Sequence record: NC_103192.1
Origin: a phage
Length of the DNA: 64,000 bases
Reading direction: 5' to 3' (one strand)
Part shown: piece by piece, positions 1 to 63,152 of the stretch
Layout: each line of letters starts with the position of its first letter
Position numbering within the stretch: position 1 is the first letter of the stretch
Notes under the pieces: model-generated
Database searches by the model: none
The model's input: the letters and a program-made list of their open reading frames with translations, nothing else
What the model was told of the DNA's origin: nothing
Program-made: the position numbers and the translations under genes

Positions 1-951
1 TATTTAAAAGTTTTGATGGACGAGATTTTTGGTCGTGCAAATCAGTTAAATACCATATCGATGACCACAAATTCCCCTTCGGGATTTAAGGCAACAGGAG
101 CCACAGTTTTCTCCACAGCAAACTTTTTGCTAGTATATGCAAAAGATCGCACCCAGAAACCGCTTAACAAAATCTATATACCTAAAGGGTATGATACAGG
201 ATATAACAAATACCTATTAAACCCGGATGACCATTATAAAAATTGGACGTGGTGCGGTATTGCCGATGCGTTTGCAAAGGCCAATGGCTATAAAGATGCA
301 AAAGAAGCCAAGAAAAAACTGCCTGATACATTCGATGATGAATTAGCACAATTCGCAATTGATAATGCAGAACGTGTATTTCAATCTGTTGCAATTGGCG
401 GTGGTGCTAAAATAAAGAGAAAAGAAACTATCGAGAAGTCAAAGAAAGACAGGGATAAGGTTTATGTACATCCAAATGAAGATGTTGAAGGATTTTATAT
501 CGCAAATGGTAGGCAAATGGTCTTTTACTCCAACAGGCTTTTGGAAATTGACGGTGAGATGCAACCTGCGGAACTAATAACTGATGTTTGGACAGACATT
601 AGTTGGAATGGGATAGCAAATGAAGGTGGCGTTAGTTTCAAAAATGGGAAAAAACCAGAAGCGCTTTTGAAGCGAATTTTCGAAATGTGTACGCGAGAAG
701 GTGATTTGGTATTGGATTCATTCGGTGGTTCGGGAACTACTGCTGCTGTAGCTCACAAGATGAAAAGACGTTGGATCTCAATCGAGCTAGGTGATCATTG
801 TCATACCCATATTATTCCGCGCTTGGAAAAAGTGATCGATGGTGAAGATCAAGGTGGTATTTCTAAGTCTGTAAACTGGCAAGGTGGTGGTGGCTTCCGT
901 TATTACAAACTTGCCCCGACCTTAATTGCGAAAGATAAGTCTGACCAATAA
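1..951 (+). CDS. DNA methyltransferase (N6-adenine/N4-cytosine, beta-class-like), C-terminal part; 5' end probably outside window
   Basis: Reading frame open to window edge; SAM-binding motif I-like DSFGGSGTT near C-terminus; no DPPY-type motif IV inside window, so catalytic N-terminal part presumably upstream. Confidence 0.6.
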   Translation, partial: YLKVLMDEIFGRANQLNTISMTTNSPSGFKATGATVFSTANFLLVYAKDRTQKPLNKIYIPKGYDTGYNKYLLNPDDHYKNWTWCGIADAFAKANGYKDAKEAKKKLPDTFDDELAQFAIDNAERVFQSVAIGGGAKIKRKETIEKSKKDRDKVYVHPNEDVEGFYIANGRQMVFYSNRLLEIDGEMQPAELITDVWTDISWNGIANEGGVSFKNGKKPEALLKRIFEMCTREGDLVLDSFGGSGTTAAVAHKMKRRWISIELGDHCHTHIIPRLEKVIDGEDQGGISKSVNWQGGGGFRYYKLAPTLIAKDKSDQ

Positions 952-964
952 AGAGTACAATCAA

Positions 965-1270
965 ATGATGAAACGTTATAAACCATACACTTTTGAAATC
1001 GATTTCGAACTTGACGATATGTTCACTGTGGAAGCTCAGGCAGTTGTCCAGTTGCCAGACCCAGAGTGCCGTGATTCTGATGTTGACTATTACGGATTTA
1101 GACAAATTACCGATGTGCATGTTTACCACAACGGTGAAGAGGTTGACTTTCACCAACTGCCAAACGATATGCGCCACTCAATTTACAAACGTGCAGCCCG
1201 TGAACTAGAGTCCTATCTGGATGCAGCGACGACAGCAGCTGCATTTGCTGAAGAAGTGGGAGGTTTCTGA
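965..1270 (+). CDS. hypothetical protein
   Basis: ORF in track (926..1270); start moved to first ATG past upstream gene stop. Confidence 0.45.
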   Translation: MMKRYKPYTFEIDFELDDMFTVEAQAVVQLPDPECRDSDVDYYGFRQITDVHVYHNGEEVDFHQLPNDMRHSIYKRAARELESYLDAATTAAAFAEEVGGF

Positions 1271-1668
1271 TGATTACAGGTGTGAAGATTATCCAATACC
1301 ACTTAACCAAATTGGAAGATGCTGAAAAAGAGCTTGCAGAAGTTCTGAATAGTGGATATACTTTACTATCATGCGCCTGCTCAGACACCTACGTTGTGTG
1401 GACACTTATCCGGAAGGAAGAGCCTGCAGGGATCTTGGTGCCAAACCCTAAGATTATTAGTGAGGTGGATGACTATTCCCAGGACGGCCTGCCAGAAGGC
1501 TGGGAAGTATGGGAAGGTGGTGAAAACCCTGCACCAGGTAAGTGGGTAAAATATAAACTACGTAGTGGTGCACAGTACGCTGACTACTCTGATGACCTAG
1601 ACTGGAGTCATTCTTCACCAGGATCGTCTGCAAGTTCATATGATATCGTTGCTTTTCAGGAAGAATAA
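1270..1668 (+). CDS. hypothetical protein
   Basis: 132-aa ORF, ATG overlaps upstream stop (coupled). Confidence 0.5.
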   Translation: MITGVKIIQYHLTKLEDAEKELAEVLNSGYTLLSCACSDTYVVWTLIRKEEPAGILVPNPKIISEVDDYSQDGLPEGWEVWEGGENPAPGKWVKYKLRSGAQYADYSDDLDWSHSSPGSSASSYDIVAFQEE

Positions 1669-1680
1669 GGAGATAGTGTT

Positions 1681-2163
1681 ATGTCAGATTTTATGTGGAA
1701 AGTAGGTTACGCAGCTCCTGAAATGTGTGAGGCTTGCTTTGTGAAAATAGGCCGCGAGGATATCGACAAAGTGATCCTTAAGTTTCGTGATGTGGCTGTG
1801 ATCGGCAACCGAGTGCTTAAGCACTTAAAGAATCTGAAGCTCACCAAAAAGAAGTTCTTCGGACTTTTCGAAGAGAAAGTCGATGCTTGGACCCATTGCA
1901 TTCAGGAAGCTAAATCTCACTACAGTGCTATCGTTACCCCAGAACGGGTAGCCAAGATGGAAGGATTTATCAACAGCACAGAGTTTGAGTGCTTAAAGGC
2001 GGCTCTTGATAGTTATCCAAAGTGCCTCAAACACCTTGACAAGTATGTGGAAAAGGATGGGGAAATGTATCTCACCCTGGACGCATACTATGAGATGCAA
2101 GAAATTTTAAATTTAGATTTGACATTGGTATCCACCGAGTATACAATAGGTATCCGGGTTTAA
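1681..2163 (+). CDS. hypothetical protein
   Basis: 160-aa ORF preceded by AAGGAGA RBS. Confidence 0.6.
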   Translation: MSDFMWKVGYAAPEMCEACFVKIGREDIDKVILKFRDVAVIGNRVLKHLKNLKLTKKKFFGLFEEKVDAWTHCIQEAKSHYSAIVTPERVAKMEGFINSTEFECLKAALDSYPKCLKHLDKYVEKDGEMYLTLDAYYEMQEILNLDLTLVSTEYTIGIRV

Positions 2164-2171
2164 CACTAGGC

Positions 2172-2196
2172 CCTGCCCGAAAGGGTGGGGCTTTTT
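2172..2196 (+). terminator. rho-independent terminator (GNRA-loop hairpin ccctgccc-gaaa-gggtgggg + T-run)
   Basis: 8-bp stem with GAAA tetraloop followed by CTTTTT; identical copy at 14251. Confidence 0.6.
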
Positions 2197-2214
2197 GCAT
2201 TAGGAGACAGCAAA

Positions 2215-2979
2215 TTGAAATTTATCTACAAAGAACACCACCACAAAGGTGTTGTGTGGAGTCTATTTGACGGGTCTGGTGGTGCAGTCATTGACTGGGC
2301 TAAAGCTGGGTATCTGTGCCTGTGCTTTAACGCAGAAGGTGCTGACCATGGTAGTTATGCAGAGGTGATAACCGATCATCCTAACATTCACTACGTTGAT
2401 TATTGGATTGACCCGTGGTTCCCTCAAGAAACTTTTTGCATGTACCCAGCTCCAGACTTTATTCTTGCATTTCCTCCGTGCACGCATTTAGCAGTATCAG
2501 GTGCTGCACATTTTAAGAAAAAGCTGGCTAAGGACCCTCTGATTCAAATTAATGCTGTAAAAGATGCTCGGGTTGCAGAAGAGTTGGGAGAGATTTACGA
2601 TTGCCCGTGGCATGTAGAGAACCCTGTAGGGGTTATGTCCACACTGTGGCGAAAACCTGATTACCGTTTTCATCCTTCTGATTATGGCGGGTATTTACCA
2701 GAAGATGATGTAAACCCGTGGTTTCCTGAATTTATAGCTCCACGTGATGCCTACCCAAAAATAACTTGCGGTTGGATAGGCAATGGATTTATAATCCCAG
2801 CCACAAAACCTGTCCCGCAAATAGTGGATGCGGTTAGTGGTTATTCTATGCAACACGCTAAGCTAGGTGGAAAGAGTGCAAGGACGAAGATGATTCGAAG
2901 CCTTACACCACGTGGCTGGGCAAGAGCTGTATTCTTAGCAAACGAGACTGTAGTAAGGAGCAGAATTAATGGGCAGTAA
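2215..2979 (+). CDS. putative DNA (cytosine-5)-methyltransferase-like protein
   Basis: Motif I-like LFDGSGG, motif IV-like FPPCT (Pro-Cys), motif VI-like HVENP; TTG start 7 nt after TAGGAGA RBS; short for a canonical C5-MTase. Confidence 0.5.
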   Translation: MKFIYKEHHHKGVVWSLFDGSGGAVIDWAKAGYLCLCFNAEGADHGSYAEVITDHPNIHYVDYWIDPWFPQETFCMYPAPDFILAFPPCTHLAVSGAAHFKKKLAKDPLIQINAVKDARVAEELGEIYDCPWHVENPVGVMSTLWRKPDYRFHPSDYGGYLPEDDVNPWFPEFIAPRDAYPKITCGWIGNGFIIPATKPVPQIVDAVSGYSMQHAKLGGKSARTKMIRSLTPRGWARAVFLANETVVRSRINGQ

Positions 2980-42961: not shown

Positions 42962-43246
42962 CTACCAGGTTACTGTCAAGTAGGCAACCGTATTATTTTT
43001 CTCTGGGGAGATGCCAACAACATCTACCTGCAGACCTCCTGCCCTTAAATCTCCAACAATGTGCGGGAAGTAATCTGAGAAATGCGAGGGTAGATTTATC
43101 GAAAATCCGCACCCCAGAAAGCCTGCTAACGCTTTATTTTGTATCTCCCCTACAATCGCATCATAAATGGAGTTAAGCTCGTCAGGGAGCGTTACAGGGC
43201 GTTTTAGCGCCAGCTGGTGTAATTTGTCCTTAGCACTCATTTTCAT
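42962..43246 (-). CDS. hypothetical protein
   Basis: Start adjusted to ATG past upstream stop. Confidence 0.5.
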   Translation of the reverse strand: MKMSAKDKLHQLALKRPVTLPDELNSIYDAIVGEIQNKALAGFLGCGFSINLPSHFSDYFPHIVGDLRAGGLQVDVVGISPEKNNTVAYLTVTW

Positions 43247-43776
43247 TTCAGGTCTACCTCTGGGGGTGCCAACCACATAAACGGCGGCAAGTCTAAACGG
43301 TTTTTCTTATCCCACACAAAATATGCATATGCTTGCCCGTCAGTTCTGCCGTTTGATTGAAATGATGGACGCTTAGATATTGTGATCACAGTAGTAGGTG
43401 CATTATCAAGCCACCATTCAAATCTGGCTTTGCTTTCCAGAAAATTAAGACGTAAAAGCATAATAACTACGTCAGCATCTTTCAACGCCTTGTCTACAAA
43501 CTCACGAGCCAGGCTGTATGGTGGGTTGGTGATAATACAGTCAACATGGTTGTATTCTGTATTCAGATAGTCAACACCTTCTTGTATTTCTCCCCATGCA
43601 GATCCTAACGGCATACGGGAGTAGAACACACCTGAGGCACTATTCCTGCAAGGCTCTAAGTAGGTCCAGTCTTCTGGGAACGGAATAAGGTCATACAGCC
43701 CTTCTGCACACCACTCCGGTGTCACATACTCATCGTAGGCGTTACGTTGTTCATCAGGTTTTCTAGCACAAGTCAT
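43243..43776 (-). CDS. small DNA N6-adenine methyltransferase (phage Dam-like)
   Basis: Motif IV IITNPPY; about 177 aa, as in short phage Dam-type MTases. Confidence 0.7.
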   Translation of the reverse strand: MTCARKPDEQRNAYDEYVTPEWCAEGLYDLIPFPEDWTYLEPCRNSASGVFYSRMPLGSAWGEIQEGVDYLNTEYNHVDCIITNPPYSLAREFVDKALKDADVVIMLLRLNFLESKARFEWWLDNAPTTVITISKRPSFQSNGRTDGQAYAYFVWDKKNRLDLPPFMWLAPPEVDLK

Positions 43777-58330: not shown

Positions 58331-59890
58331 TCAGCCCTCTTTAGCATCAATATACTTGCACACAATCTCAGATGCGCACTCCCAAGGAGCTCCCTCGGGG
58401 TTAACAACATCAAACTCGATACCTTTTATCCCGTTCTTCTCTAAGCTAAGGTAAGTTCTGGAATCATTTCCCCAATCATATCCTGCACGGTGGATACGGA
58501 ACAGTAGAAGATCGCCACCTGTGCTGTATGCGTACTCGCCAAGGCATGCCAGCTCCTCTTTGAAGCCACCGTCGGAGTAAACAACAACCCCTTTACCTTC
58601 AGGGAAATCTTTCTTCAAGGATGCGACTGCGGCCTTACCGAAAGCATCTTCACCAAAGATAGGTTTAATCAGATTTTCACTACAATGGATCATCCATTCT
58701 CGCGGAGAAACATGCTTGCCGTCTATCATTAAGAACGGGCACGGTTCTTCTTTGTAGCGGCGATCATAAAGTGCATTCCACAACTGTGGTGAAATACCCG
58801 CTGCCTTAATTGCCACACTGAATAGCATTTCCTTTACCTCGCGGTGATGCGAGTTTGGAATGGCTTCCAACAAAAGATCTGCGATATGGTCTTTTCCACT
58901 GTTACCTGTTAAAAACACCATACCGTTTTGTCTTGCCACCCAAAATCCGGTTGTTGTGGTAAAGCAGTAACACTTACCCCCAGGTAACTCCTCTTTGTAA
59001 GGTTGAAAAGCTTTATCTGGATTATCATATCCGCCACTTTTACGCATCGAATAAGAGTCTGACTTTAGAATTTTTACCGCATAGCAAACGCTACGAGTTC
59101 TGCTCTCTTTATCACACTCCCTTTTGTAGTTATCTATTTCAATTTTGGCCTTTCTTCCACATTTTGCTGCTAAAAGCTGAAACAGATCTGCCTCCTCTTT
59201 AGAAGTGGTTGAGAAAGATTTGTATTTCTCGCACCCATCCCATTTCAGCATCTCGTTTAGTAGTTTTTCACTAGCATTAGAAGAGAGATTCCACCAATGG
59301 CTAGGTATACCATCTTTCTTCATGAAAGGGCTGTTGTAAATGAAAAAACGGGTGTAGCCAGGCATACTATCAAACTCTTTTTCGGAAAAGGTTACTCCAG
59401 TTCTTTTAAATAAGTATCGTAGCCTCTCCTTTTTACGGTCCTTTTTAATATTAAACATCAAAACACCCTCCCGATTTTTAACCTCAGAGGAGTCTGCTAA
59501 GATTGCAACTCTAAGCAGGTCAAAATCGTCAACATCCTCTCCAGATTCTTGATGGAAGGTGGCAGGTATATATCCATCGTAGCCAGTTTTGGATTCCAAA
59601 GTTATCTCTGACCACTCTCTAGCAATTCTTGATCCTCTTCTGTTTTCATACAGAACTTTGTGGTTAGGTGTTAAAACCATGGACCATGTGGCAAAAACGC
59701 CCTTTTCAAAAACTGGAGTATTGCCTTCAATAAATTCAGGTATCTCCCAATGCATTGCCCCAAATTTATCGCACACTGCCACGAAATCATTATCAAAATC
59801 TTCTATACTTTTCCACCCAGATTTGGTGAGGAACTCTGTACCACTCGGGACGCAGCACGGTGGAGCGTTAAGAACAATAATATCCATCAA
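58331..59890 (-). CDS. deoxynucleoside monophosphate kinase precursor (contains intein 58901..59854)
   Basis: Exteins MMDIIVLNAPPC + SGKDHIADLL... give P-loop LNAPPCSGKD, resembling T4-type dNMP kinase N-terminus (LSGVKRSGKD). Confidence 0.7.
   Translation of the reverse strand: MMDIIVLNAPPCCVPSGTEFLTKSGWKSIEDFDNDFVAVCDKFGAMHWEIPEFIEGNTPVFEKGVFATWSMVLTPNHKVLYENRRGSRIAREWSEITLESKTGYDGYIPATFHQESGEDVDDFDLLRVAILADSSEVKNREGVLMFNIKKDRKKERLRYLFKRTGVTFSEKEFDSMPGYTRFFIYNSPFMKKDGIPSHWWNLSSNASEKLLNEMLKWDGCEKYKSFSTTSKEEADLFQLLAAKCGRKAKIEIDNYKRECDKESRTRSVCYAVKILKSDSYSMRKSGGYDNPDKAFQPYKEELPGGKCYCFTTTTGFWVARQNGMVFLTGNSGKDHIADLLLEAIPNSHHREVKEMLFSVAIKAAGISPQLWNALYDRRYKEEPCPFLMIDGKHVSPREWMIHCSENLIKPIFGEDAFGKAAVASLKKDFPEGKGVVVYSDGGFKEELACLGEYAYSTGGDLLLFRIHRAGYDWGNDSRTYLSLEKNGIKGIEFDVVNPEGAPWECASEIVCKYIDAKEG
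58901..59854 (-). mobile_element. intein (about 318 aa) inserted in P-loop of dNMP kinase
   Basis: N-block CVPSGTEFLTKSGW (compare polymerase intein CYSGDTQILTEKGW); C-terminus ...GFWVARQNGMVFLTGN followed by +1 Ser; internal LLRVAILADSS LAGLIDADG-like motif. Confidence 0.7.
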
Positions 59891-60105: not shown

Positions 60106-60564
60106 TTAGAAGTTTGTTTTTACACGTCCCTTTTCATCAACCTCGTTGTTAGCTAAAAGCGTTACAAAGTCTGTGAAACGGACATGAAGAACTTTTTTCT
60201 TATCAAGGTATCCTAAAGCCACCCCTGAGAAATTTAGCATCAAAGGGGCTAAAGAAGCTCTGGCACTGAAATGCCGTTGTTCTACCCTTCCAACACCCTT
60301 AGTGTAGGATGGGTTAAGATTGTAAGTTCTGAATCCTAGTTTTGTTGGAGCTTTAGAATTAAAAACAACTTTATAGCGTTTCTTACTCAACTTATGCTCC
60401 AGGATAAGCATTCCCTTATCACCTTTGATAAGTTGAAAATCTGTAAAGTGCTCTTTTAAGACGAAAGGTAGTGCCAGTCCCATCGCCTGTCCTCTTTGTA
60501 CCGCTGTCTCACCAAAAGCTTTTGCATCAGTAAGTTCTTTGGTCAAGTCTATGCTTTTGATCAT
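60106..60564 (-). CDS. hypothetical protein
   Basis: 152-aa ORF immediately downstream of MTase, overlapping its 3' end. Confidence 0.5.
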   Translation of the reverse strand: MIKSIDLTKELTDAKAFGETAVQRGQAMGLALPFVLKEHFTDFQLIKGDKGMLILEHKLSKKRYKVVFNSKAPTKLGFRTYNLNPSYTKGVGRVEQRHFSARASLAPLMLNFSGVALGYLDKKKVLHVRFTDFVTLLANNEVDEKGRVKTNF

Positions 60565-61375
60565 ACCTGGTCTCCAAAATGTATTGTAGTTCTTTCTTAC
60601 CTATACTCTTCATTCCAGCAGTCTTACCTGCTTCTTCTTGAAAAGAAGAATAGCATTCAGCAAACACTCTGTCAACACCGTCAACTAAAGATTTTATGAA
60701 ATATGTTGATTCTTCAGATTTTGGGTCATCATCCCCCAATACTTTTCCAGCATTATACCCAACACGTCTTACACAGAAGTCGTAGTCATCTGGTGTGCTA
60801 AAAGAAAATAACTTATTCTCTCCAATCTCTACAGGATCCCTATTGCACGCCTTTTTCTCCCAAATTTGGAAAACACATGGCACGTCATAAGGTTTACCAT
60901 TAAGTAAAAACGAGTTCTTAGGGCACCTTTCGCTGTAGACAAGGTGCATAGACATGTCCAGTTTGTTTGCAAAAAATATTTTTTCAAATGTCCGTGGCAA
61001 GATGAAGGCTATAGCCCCGCCAAGCTCTAGCAATGATGCACAATGGTTAAAGAATTTGCAAGCTAAAGATGAATTCTTGCCAAATGGTGGGTTACCTATG
61101 AAGACATCTGCCTTGGGATGCACCTCCAAGAAGTTTGCCTGAATGCACTGTGTTGGTCCTTCAAATTCAGGATCTGGTACTAGATCGTACGACAGTATCT
61201 TTGAAAATAGTTTTGAAAAAGAACCCCTTCCAGCAGAAGGCTCAACGTATGCACAATTCCCATACTTGTCTTTTACTTTACCAACAAGATATTCTGCATA
61301 CTCAGGGTTTGTGTAATATTTGTCGTTGGACTCTTTCTTGCTCAAAGTGCCTCCAAAAGGAAAAGGGAGGCGCAA
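60527..61375 (-). CDS. DNA N6-adenine methyltransferase
   Basis: Motif I-like VEPSAGRGSF and motif IV IGNPPF. Confidence 0.7.
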   Translation of the reverse strand: MRLPFPFGGTLSKKESNDKYYTNPEYAEYLVGKVKDKYGNCAYVEPSAGRGSFSKLFSKILSYDLVPDPEFEGPTQCIQANFLEVHPKADVFIGNPPFGKNSSLACKFFNHCASLLELGGAIAFILPRTFEKIFFANKLDMSMHLVYSERCPKNSFLLNGKPYDVPCVFQIWEKKACNRDPVEIGENKLFSFSTPDDYDFCVRRVGYNAGKVLGDDDPKSEESTYFIKSLVDGVDRVFAECYSSFQEEAGKTAGMKSIGKKELQYILETRYDQKHRLDQRTY

Positions 61376-61390
61376 GCCTCCCTATAATTG

Positions 61391-62374
61391 TTAGATTATC
61401 TGAATCAGGGTGTTTTTCATTTCTTCTCTGGTGCGGATGTTGTTACGGTCACGAACAACAGATCCACAACCTTCGCAGCGGTATGTTTTAAATGCACTCA
61501 GTTGAGTATACGCCAAAGCTTCTTCCTCGTGAAGGTGTTCTCCACCACAGCGTGGGCAACGAACTTTTGGCTCCTCGTCTTGATAGTACAATGACATGTT
61601 TGGGTGCTGCTTAGCAAACGGGCGAGCCAGCAAATACAGGCCTTCCAGAGACAAGATATCACCAACATTGTACTCCCGCATCTGTTTAAACGCCTCAAGG
61701 TCACCGTGAACACACTTGATCCACATTTCAAATGTGTGGTCAATCAGTTTCTGTCTGGCAAGTTGGAAGTATTTGCATGCATACTCCAAAGTGTTTGCAT
61801 TCAAACGGAATGCCTTCTTGATCATTTTAAGGGTGTCAACCTCTTTGTAGGGGCTTGTTGGAGGCAACCCGTGAAATGCAAATCGTTGGTTGGCCCACCC
61901 GCAGTCAAAACCTGAATTGTGGGCTACTGCTACATCGCATTTATCCAGATAATACCACAAATCCTGAATCAATTCGAGATCATTGTGAATATCCTCATCC
62001 CACATTTTGTAATCTGGAAGAGCGCAGTCAACCACACTAGGGTTGTCTAACCACTTACCTGCGAAAGTTAGCATATAGGGCATAACTTCAATACCACAGG
62101 TTTGAATGTTGGTCTTATAGTGCCCAAAGAACCAGCCGTTTGTTGGGGATGTCTCTGTATCATACACCCAAACTTTAGCACCTTTGTGCTCTTCAAGGAA
62201 GCGCTCCGTTGCTTCTCCTACAATCTCTGACATATTCTCTTGTGCACGTTTAAGCTGTAGTCGGATCCAGCTCTCGCGTGACTCACGGCCTAAAAATTCA
62301 CGAGCAATTTGTCTATTAGTGTATCCCTGTTGCTTTAGTGTTAAAATTTGCTCAAGAGTTAACTTTGTCATCAT
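61391..62374 (-). CDS. putative DnaQ-like (DEDD) 3'-5' exonuclease with C-terminal zinc ribbon
   Basis: Exo I-like VWVYDTETSP, Exo II-like AHNSGFD; CPRCGG...CEGCG. Confidence 0.55.
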   Translation of the reverse strand: MMTKLTLEQILTLKQQGYTNRQIAREFLGRESRESWIRLQLKRAQENMSEIVGEATERFLEEHKGAKVWVYDTETSPTNGWFFGHYKTNIQTCGIEVMPYMLTFAGKWLDNPSVVDCALPDYKMWDEDIHNDLELIQDLWYYLDKCDVAVAHNSGFDCGWANQRFAFHGLPPTSPYKEVDTLKMIKKAFRLNANTLEYACKYFQLARQKLIDHTFEMWIKCVHGDLEAFKQMREYNVGDILSLEGLYLLARPFAKQHPNMSLYYQDEEPKVRCPRCGGEHLHEEEALAYTQLSAFKTYRCEGCGSVVRDRNNIRTREEMKNTLIQII

Positions 62375-62386
62375 CGTTAAGATTCC

Positions 62387-62608
62387 TTAGTAAAACTGAA
62401 GAATGTCTTTTAAAGCGAAGTCACGATATTCGCCCTTGTCTACATCGAAGGCACGCATCAACCACTGCTCTTCTTTATGATACTCTGTAGAGCCAAACCA
62501 TAAATTAGGCTCAGTAACGCAGCGATCTGCAACAACACCTTTCCAGTTACGGTATTTCATCCTGATCAGGACTGAGTCGCAAGGATTGAATACCTTTTTC
62601 ATCCCCAT
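62387..62608 (-). CDS. hypothetical protein
   Basis: 73-aa ORF. Confidence 0.4.
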   Translation of the reverse strand: MGMKKVFNPCDSVLIRMKYRNWKGVVADRCVTEPNLWFGSTEYHKEEQWLMRAFDVDKGEYRDFALKDILQFY

Positions 62609-63152
62609 AGAAATCTCTCTCCTCAGTTTTCTTTATAAACTCCTGCATGTAGAACTCAATAGCCTCATGCTTGGTGCACTCCGGATTAATGACAAGATTG
62701 AGATCTGATTCTGCTCGTGCAATAATCGTAGCTTTAGAGCATCTCCTCAAGAACTTTGTCATATCATCTCTGTAGTTTTTGTGGAGCGGGAAGTCGCTGT
62801 AGTCTTTCTCCAAATAGTCAGCCATCCGGCGCAACGCCTCTGATAAACTGCAATCTGTATACTCGTTACAGTATTTCATCCAGTATTTAAGCACATACCC
62901 CTCAAAGGTATTAGTGCATTGAGACAAAACACCCCTGCAGCGACCAGTCAGATGATCATGATCTAAACAAGGCTTACGAAGTGGTTCACACAAGATCGGA
63001 TCAAGACCATCCTGCTCTTCTGACAATTCTTTCCGAAAGTTGGCTATGTCCTTAGAATCTTTTAGCCACCCGCTATGAACGGGGGCTTTGACAGCTTTCT
63101 TTCTTATTTTACGCTTTGCGATAATCCCTCCAGATGCGCCCTGCCTATCCAA
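62547..63152 (-). CDS. endonuclease VII-like Holliday junction resolvase
   Basis: CLDHDHLTGRCRGVLSQCTN matches Endo VII LDHDH...G..RG.LC..CN signature. Confidence 0.65.
   Translation of the reverse strand: MDRQGASGGIIAKRKIRKKAVKAPVHSGWLKDSKDIANFRKELSEEQDGLDPILCEPLRKPCLDHDHLTGRCRGVLSQCTNTFEGYVLKYWMKYCNEYTDCSLSEALRRMADYLEKDYSDFPLHKNYRDDMTKFLRRCSKATIIARAESDLNLVINPECTKHEAIEFYMQEFIKKTEERDFYGDEKGIQSLRLSPDQDEIP

Follow-up and report, generated by a model that had tools for sequence, protein, structure and literature searches.

The stretch of DNA analyzed here (sequence record NC_103192.1; 64,000 nucleotides, hereafter the window) belongs to an rV5-like Vequintavirus, a phage of E. coli, and harbors four genes of DNA methyltransferase (MTase) families, designated (a) to (d), together with a 152-codon open reading frame (ORF) which overlaps the last of them and probably forms with it a two-gene module derived from a restriction-modification (R-M) system. 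MTases (a) (1..951) and (b) (2215..2979) are located on the plus strand, while MTases (c) (43243..43776) and (d) (60527..61345) and the 152-codon ORF (60106..60564) are located on the minus strand. The four ORFs and the motifs quoted for them in an earlier sequence-only reading of this DNA (DSFGGSGTT in (a); FDGSGG, PPC(T) and ENP in (b); NPPY in (c); EPSAGRGSF and NPPF in (d)) are present in the sequence, and Pfam, PHROG, PADLOC or fold support was obtained for every one of them. All four are, with high confidence, MTase-family proteins, and they represent four separate, unrelated S-adenosylmethionine (SAM)-dependent lineages conserved across the genus. About 120 GenBank records match three named regions of the window with 93-99% nucleotide identity, most of them spanning each of the three query regions almost fully, and the MTase genes are kept in about 115 of the 120 rV5-like genomes. 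The equivalent region of phage JohannBauhin (MZ501083) carries exactly four methyltransferase annotations (bas53_0069, 0073, 0173 and 0193), with no fifth MTase annotated over the equivalent 58 kb, and a 2025 paper on Vequintavirus BME3 also states four methyltransferase coding sequences (PMC12210895). The observation of four MTases is correct but was already known, the genes carrying annotations in over 100 genomes.

MTase (d) and the overlapping 152-codon ORF

MTase (d) is a gamma-class type II MTase of the N6-adenine type, consisting of 272 amino acid residues and containing the motifs DKYYTNPE, EPSAGRGSF and GNPPFG. Its maximal ORF reaches a TTG codon at 61375, which falls within the four-base loop of a terminator-like hairpin (61355..61382, minus strand; GGGAGGC-TTGC-GCCTCCC followed by a T-run, as read from the sequence) located between the DnaQ-like exonuclease gene and MTase (d). 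A further TTG at 61345 is preceded by GGAGG, the database relatives are 272 residues long, and the start is most likely TTG 61345, not 61375. The protein matches the PADLOC model MTase_II PDLC03255 (1.9e-34, model positions 2-249 of 269) and phrog_5172 (7e-129), and a protein 100% identical to it is encoded on the IMG/VR contig IMGVR_UViG_3300010279_000001. The (d) family comprises 807 clusters of proteins of about 255-290 residues, found in phages and in many giant-virus metagenome-assembled genomes (MAGs), with invariant EPSAG.G.F and GNPPFG motifs (alignment A3).

The 152-codon ORF overlaps the 3' end of MTase (d) by 38 nt and possesses its own GGAG ribosome-binding site and ATG start codon. 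Among annotated families it matched phrog_9938 (unknown function) only, and a word-indexed search combined with a full HMMER search of 1.8 billion representatives recovered only its orthologues in rV5-like phages, together with three proteins some 134 residues long (E 8e-6 to 2e-4). The genes of all three of these distant relatives lie directly upstream of, and overlap, an MTase gene of the (d) family: the MTase at locus L004 is 40% identical to (d) (E 8e-56), and loci L006 and L007 carry the start of such a gene, DK(F/Y)YTN ... EP(S/A)AG. Moreover, in a 395-residue homologue of (d) (P0145) the partner domain is fused at the N-terminus (hhalign 95.9%, E 5.6e-9). A survey of 80 viral loci with relatives of (d), in which all ORFs were searched by iterative hidden Markov models to convergence, revealed partners at 22 loci, every one of them at most 156 nt from the MTase gene, in three arrangements: on the same strand either upstream or downstream, or else downstream and convergent. 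The ratios of nonsynonymous to synonymous substitution rates between the window and its pig-gut relatives were 0.04-0.07 for the 152-codon ORF and 0.05-0.085 for MTase (d), indicating strong purifying selection on both. Because of this conserved adjacency, the natural fusion and the comparable purifying selection, the 152-codon ORF is very likely a true, functional and co-inherited partner of (d), which bears out the suggestion of the sequence-only reading that it could encode a partner protein.

A frameshifted or split gene was rejected as an explanation of the pair: (d)-family proteins are complete at about 255-290 residues, and the ORF has its own translation signals. No plasmid homologues of the partners were recovered by tblastn, no phage homologues of the partner at L011 were found, and a scan of bacterial genomes returned one MAG contig only. 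Searches of Pfam and NCBIfam with the partner family yielded nothing significant, the weak match to ERCC4 having an E-value of 0.017.

Just upstream of the (d) module lie, as annotated in relatives, genes for the DnaQ-like exonuclease (61391..62374, minus strand; weak RNase_T match) and for an Endonuclease VII-family protein (62547..63152, minus strand; PF02945, 1.4e-7). In three contigs from pig-gut and other metagenomes (L089-L091; protein 80-85% identical) the pair is intact and its upstream neighbors are a T4-type RNA ligase gene and a 196-codon ORF on the opposite strand, unlike the window, where (d) is preceded instead by the DnaQ-like exonuclease gene. These arrangements suggest that the pair of (d) and the 152-codon ORF moves as a cassette.

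Probable restriction-endonuclease homology of the partner family

The partners form two branches. The first, found in giant-virus MAGs and several phages and referred to as the restriction endonuclease (REase) branch, has an invariant DGR, an aspartate, (D/E)xK and PS...G.GR; the six members tested all match PADLOC REase_II PDLC03550, with E-values from 8e-11 to 8e-5, and so does L099, a homologue from a Flavobacteriales MAG whose gene adjoins a (d)-type MTase gene. This branch is 43% identical (tblastn) to proteins annotated as 'R.RsaI endonuclease' in cyanophages Syn19 and ACG-2014j, and the Syn19 protein matches both the REase-branch profile A4 (99.9%) and PDLC03550. Among PDB sequences the REase-branch profile gave only chance SH3 matches. 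The second branch, of 11 members, includes the window ORF, its marine relatives, the partners at L009, L010, L015 and L087, and the domain fused in P0145. Its profile (A5) aligned with A4 over 111 columns (hhalign 92.7%, E 4.4e-7), while two unrelated alignments used as negative controls reached 0.8% and 0.2%. The earlier statement that the ORF has no recognizable motif holds for single-sequence searches, but the profile-profile comparison links it to the RsaI-type endonuclease family, and on the evidence of these alignments an REase ancestry of the 152-codon ORF appears likely.

Across the window branch, DGR (D51-G52-R53 in Syn19 numbering) is replaced by (R/K/H/N)G(Q/S), and the catalytic columns D79, (D/E)89 and K91 are occupied by hydrophobic residues, K/R and V/I/F, respectively. 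The window ORF has L53, K65 and V67 at these columns (K65-V66-V67), and an intact PD...(D/E)xK site is not present in it. Only P85, S86, G90, G92 and R93 are kept in this branch, and the residues shared by all 11 members include neither an acidic one nor a histidine. The theoretical isoelectric point of the window protein is 10.0 (26 K+R versus 14 D+E), as against about 6 in the REase branch. Judging from these substitutions, the protein is more probably non-catalytic, i.e. nuclease-dead, than active.

Concerning the target sequence, RsaI recognizes GTAC and cleaves it only in the unmethylated state; in this sequence M.RsaI produces N4-methylcytosine, and the base modified by M.CviQI, M.PabI and M.HpyAXII is the adenine (PMC2588503). 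In Syn19 (L100; GU071106, 136007..137307) and at L101 the MTase partner of the RsaI-type endonuclease is a beta-class SPPY enzyme that is not related to (d), whereas other phages and giant-virus MAGs combine this endonuclease family with the gamma-class (d) family. The endonuclease family has therefore exchanged MTase partners, and the association of different MTases with one endonuclease family is the pattern expected for isospecific systems. By analogy with these systems GTAC may be the target of (d), an assignment that we propose tentatively, as a possibility rather than a probability. A GATC (CviAI) target, drawn from the giant-virus literature, was dropped once the partner family matched the RsaI-annotated proteins. 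Among the 4-bp palindromes of the window, GTAC ranks second in under-representation, with 132 sites against 198 expected, which was not taken as evidence either way. The literature searched yielded neither a methylome nor an RsaI digest of any rV5-like phage.

The other three methyltransferases

MTase (a), a beta-class, Type III Mod-like N6-adenine MTase of 441 residues, is represented in the window by its C-terminal 316 codons, the ORF being truncated at the window start; the gene is 1326 nt long in relatives, and the MZ501083 orthologue consists of 441 residues. Motif I (DSFGGSG) lies inside the window and motif IV (DPPF) upstream of its start; in the MZ501083 orthologue, IDPPFNT (motif IV) occupies residues 72-78 and DSFGGSG is found near the C-terminus, which is the beta-class order. 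The window fragment matches Pfam N6_N4_Mtase (PF01555, 1.7e-24) and phrog_67 (2e-30), and the full-length orthologue matches PADLOC MTase_III PDLC03636 (6.9e-205, model positions 2-444 of 575). The neighbors of (a) are a replication-module DNA helicase and small hypothetical ORFs. Since no Res-like subunit gene is annotated beside it and the small flanking ORFs match no PADLOC restriction model, (a) is an orphan Mod-like enzyme. PADLOC scans revealed no nuclease partner among the small ORFs beside (a), (b) and (c). A 114-codon ORF between (a) and (b) (926..1270, plus strand) belongs to phrog_4240, whose function is not known, and weakly resembles two DNA-methyltransferase PHROGs (phrog_1573, 1.9e-5; phrog_2060, 0.0075); it may be a small domain travelling with MTases.

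MTase (b) is predicted to adopt a minimal C5-cytosine-MTase fold of 254 residues, with FDGSGG (motif I), FPPCT (motif IV, including the catalytic Cys) and ENPV (motif VI). A terminator-like GC hairpin with a T-run (2171..2196, plus strand; read from the sequence) separates it from the upstream ORF, and a ribosome-binding site, AGGAGA, is present at 2202-2207, between the hairpin and the TTG codon at 2215. As the GTG at 2185 falls inside the hairpin and the Shine-Dalgarno sequence precedes TTG 2215, the start at 2215 is the right one for (b). The protein matches phrog_757 'DNA methyltransferase' (4.9e-87), with no Pfam match at E<=0.1 and no NCBIfam match. Its family comprises 4175 clusters at E<=1e-3, with proteins of 225-260 residues; Cys89 (FPPC, motif IV) and Glu135 (ENPV, motif VI) are invariant in 32 diverse members. 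Two members of the family, P0059 and P0071, exceed the PF00145 cut-off of 22 with 24.7 and 28.5 bits, in the N-terminal half only. The AlphaFold2 model of (b) has a predicted local distance difference test score (pLDDT) of 90.9, and its top Foldseek matches are the DNMT3A/3B catalytic domains (5e-7); against PDB sequences, the (b) profile reached only E ~1 to C5-MTases. Searches of the PDB with the single sequences of (b), (c) and (d) were uninformative. Because of the invariant Cys and Glu, the PF00145-passing members, the confident model and the Foldseek match, (b) is, as modeled, a genuine but minimal C5-MTase fold, with a very short target-recognition region. The unusually small size of this enzyme and its PCT and ENP variants, pointed out in the sequence-only reading, are confirmed, although both catalytic residues (Cys and Glu) are invariant in the family.

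The sequence-only reading suggested that (b) may have a different substrate. An assignment of (b) to CmoX, a DNA cytosine C5-carboxymethyltransferase, was considered and appears improbable. The signature of CmoX is defined as SPPC (PMC12783734) and is absent from (b), whose family has (A/S)(F/W/Y)PPC, with an aromatic residue before PPC. At the position of M.HhaI Asn-304, CmoX has an Arg which binds the Cx-SAM carboxyl; the (b) family has invariant R228 and R233 in a C-terminal IRSLTPRG, one of which may correspond to that position. Neither cmoA (Cx-SAM synthase) nor a cmoY ligase gene is annotated in the equivalent region of MZ501083, where most genes are labeled 'hypothetical' and no dedicated scan was made.

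MTase (c) is a 177-residue minimal amino-MTase with the gamma-type motif order YxTP ... EPC ... NPPY. It matches phrog_799 (8e-67) and falls below the cut-offs of EcoRI_methylase (Pfam), phage Dam PF05869 (19.2 versus 28.1 bits) and TIGR01712 (phage_N6A_met; 16.1 versus 97). The gene was found by tblastn in 577 phage records; Phapecoctavirus and phi92-like relatives also have homologues, and the gene adjoins a ClpP-like protease gene in the Vequintavirinae and in the Cronobacter, Pectobacterium and Salmonella relatives checked. Alignment A6 revealed the order YxTP - EP(C/S/A) - NPP(Y/F), with invariant E41-P42, D79 and N84-P85-P86. The glycine-rich SAM loop and the adjacent helix (11-17 residues) are missing from (c) and its Vequintavirinae and Vibrio-phage relatives, yet the protein is highly conserved; both elements are retained in distant homologues (L096 and L097 were compared), among them Campylobacter and Roseobacter phage relatives. 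Against the PDB, the A6 profile matches M.TaqI (2e-4), followed by type I HsdM and DpnA. MTase (c) is a minimal gamma-type amino-MTase and a core gene of the subfamily, and its likeliest substrate, as far as these matches indicate, is DNA. The label 'Dam-like' given earlier to (c) and (d) is a loose one: no E. coli-type (alpha-class) Dam match was obtained, (c) scores below the PF05869 cut-off and (d) matches neither PF05869 nor TIGR01712.

Two observations concern the phage at large. A P-loop nucleoside triphosphatase/dNMP-kinase-like gene (58331..59890, minus strand) encodes 519 residues in the window versus 204 in JohannBauhin, with no Pfam match for the longer ORF. The P-loop is split by a 318-residue in-frame insertion (~58904..59857; NAPP | CCVPSGTEF ... 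VFLTGN | SGKD), in which Cys is first and Asn last, followed by Ser, as in the layout of inteins. In addition, 15-20 or more GenBank records of the MG0656xx series labeled 'Campylobacter phage' (host Campylobacter jejuni) are 93-100% identical to this rV5-like phage of E. coli, and look mislabelled or derived from contaminating coliphages.

Origin and role of the (d) module

We consider it probable, taking the explanation as a whole, that the window encodes four MTases, one of which, (d), forms with the 152-codon ORF a domesticated R-M pair whose nuclease-dead subunit works together with the MTase. The most likely activity of the four enzymes would be the methylation of phage DNA during its replication, at a small number of short motifs, and any resulting protection would be motif-specific and not broad. 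The pair would descend from a type II R-M system of GTAC type: MTases of the (d) family in other phages and in giant viruses have as their partner an RsaI-type PD-(D/E)xK endonuclease, the catalytic residues of which have been replaced in the rV5 branch. In the domesticated module, (d) would methylate the adenine of GTAC on phage DNA, while the 152-residue protein would bind the shared recognition sequence without cutting it and would work physically with (d), for example by finding or holding unmethylated sites, which the fusion in P0145 would fit.

Several observations weigh against this explanation. Of the 66 (d)-family loci with complete flanks, 46 have no detectable partner. Neither the window ORF nor its own branch matches an REase profile in PADLOC, hhalign of this branch with the single Syn19 sequence reaches only 5.7%, and the AlphaFold2 model of the 152-residue protein, built from 7 sequences, is poor (pLDDT 53.6), so that alignments of sequences 21-32% identical are the basis for both the fold and the active-site loss. 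The 'R.RsaI' label of the cyanophage proteins is itself an annotation by homology, and the Syn19 endonuclease is accompanied by a different, beta-class MTase, so that GTAC is attributed to (d) by analogy. Finally, the best PDB sequence matches of the (d) profile are the RNA MTases Ta1320 and METTL5 (5e-4), with M.TaqI at only 0.5, and for this reason an RNA substrate for (d) is kept as a minor rival. In its wider form, according to which at least one of (b), (c) and (d) has an RNA substrate or transfers a non-methyl group, as the carboxymethyl-transferring CmoX does, this rival is very improbable: for (d) there are the match to REBASE-derived type II DNA MTase models (1.9e-34) and the pairing of its family with an REase, the (c) profile matches DNA MTases first, and (b) has FPPC rather than SPPC, with DNA C5-MTases as its best matches.

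The 152-residue protein could alternatively be an active endonuclease, completing a type II R-M system used against host DNA or co-infecting phages, as in chloroviruses and marseilleviruses. Some PD-(D/E)xK enzymes take their catalytic residues from non-canonical positions, the homology to the REase family and the R-M-like adjacency to an MTase gene are kept, and viral R-M systems are documented (PMC7253447). The replacement of the DGR, D79, (D/E)89 and K91 columns across the rV5 branch, the lack of any invariant acidic residue or histidine and of an REase profile match, and the fusion of the same variant to an MTase nevertheless make an active enzyme unlikely. The four MTases might also constitute a broad anti-restriction battery with the 152-codon ORF as an unrelated neighbor, in keeping with the common reading of orphan phage MTases (PMC12210895) and with the conservation of all four genes. 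Restriction pressure is indicated by the strong avoidance of GC-rich palindromes: eleven 6-bp ones (e.g. CCCGGG, CTCGAG, GTCGAC, GCTAGC and TGGCCA) are absent from the window, ~37 occurrences in total being expected under a Markov model, and the most depleted 4-mers are CTAG, GTAC and CCGG, with GATC at expectation (338 sites). Such a battery is made doubtful by the BASEL study, which found the Vequintavirinae 'exceptionally susceptible' to the R-M systems tested and seemingly without effective protection (PMC8594841), and adjacency, fusion and similar selection tie the ORF to (d); we regard this alternative as quite improbable. The same phenotype speaks against the 'extensive self-methylation as anti-restriction' put forward in the sequence-only reading, and any protection must therefore be narrow and sequence-specific; self-methylation may protect against R-M systems with matching motifs. 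The rV5 genome paper makes no mention of methylation or digestion resistance and shows XbaI-digested DNA (PMC3606486).

Under the domesticated-pair explanation, a more specific and, in our estimate, unlikely role for the 152-residue protein would be that of an exapted anti-restriction device, either masking unmethylated sites (predicted GTAC) on phage DNA that has just entered the cell or been replicated, or joining a host endonuclease of its own family in heterodimers that lack activity. If so, it would buy time for the co-translated (d) to methylate these sites, a 'poison-subunit or site-masking' counter-defence derived from a defence enzyme. The four MTases themselves are ordinary, and broad protection is not known to result from them; what is new is the two-gene module, in which a homologue of an REase lacking the catalytic residues is strongly selected beside, or fused to, an MTase in several phage lineages. 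No description of a nuclease-dead REase homologue coupled to a phage MTase was found in the literature searched. The module provides a case, open to testing, in which a restriction enzyme has been recruited to a task other than cutting, gives a role to the conserved ORFan phrog_9938 in a phage group used for biocontrol and therapy, and predicts that virion DNA is resistant to RsaI.

Compared with known systems, MTase (a) resembles the Type III Mod subunits of the EcoP1I/EcoP15I type, its orthologue matching the Type III MTase model over its whole length with DPPF before FGGSG, and differs from them in lacking an adjacent Res, in covering only the first 444 of the 575 model positions and in being an orphan in a lytic phage. 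MTase (b) differs from the C5-cytosine DNA MTases (M.HhaI, M.HaeIII and the DNMT3A/3B catalytic domains; PF00145) in its length, 254 residues as against 273-388 in solved stand-alone enzymes and catalytic domains, in its PCT and ENP variants and tiny recognition region, and in scoring below the Pfam threshold. MTases (c) and (d) share the order TP ... EP(S/C) ... NPP(Y/F) with the M.TaqI-like gamma-class N6-adenine MTases and the small phage N6A MTases (PF05869, TIGR01712), and the (c) profile matches M.TaqI itself; in contrast to these enzymes, (c) has neither the glycine-rich SAM loop nor a separate recognition domain, and both proteins fall below the curated cut-offs. The closest counterparts of the (d) module are the RsaI/CviQI-type (GTAC) R-M systems, including those of chloroviruses, marseilleviruses and cyanophages, in which an endonuclease-family gene of about 160 codons adjoins an MTase gene of about 270 codons in variable order and orientation; homologues of the partner match the same REase profile as the cyanophage 'R.RsaI endonuclease'. 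The module differs from these systems in that (d) is a gamma-class NPPF enzyme as opposed to the beta-class SPPY MTase paired with the Syn19 endonuclease, and in that the partner of the rV5 branch is basic, devoid of D...(D/E)xK, in some cases fused to the MTase, and probably does not cleave DNA.

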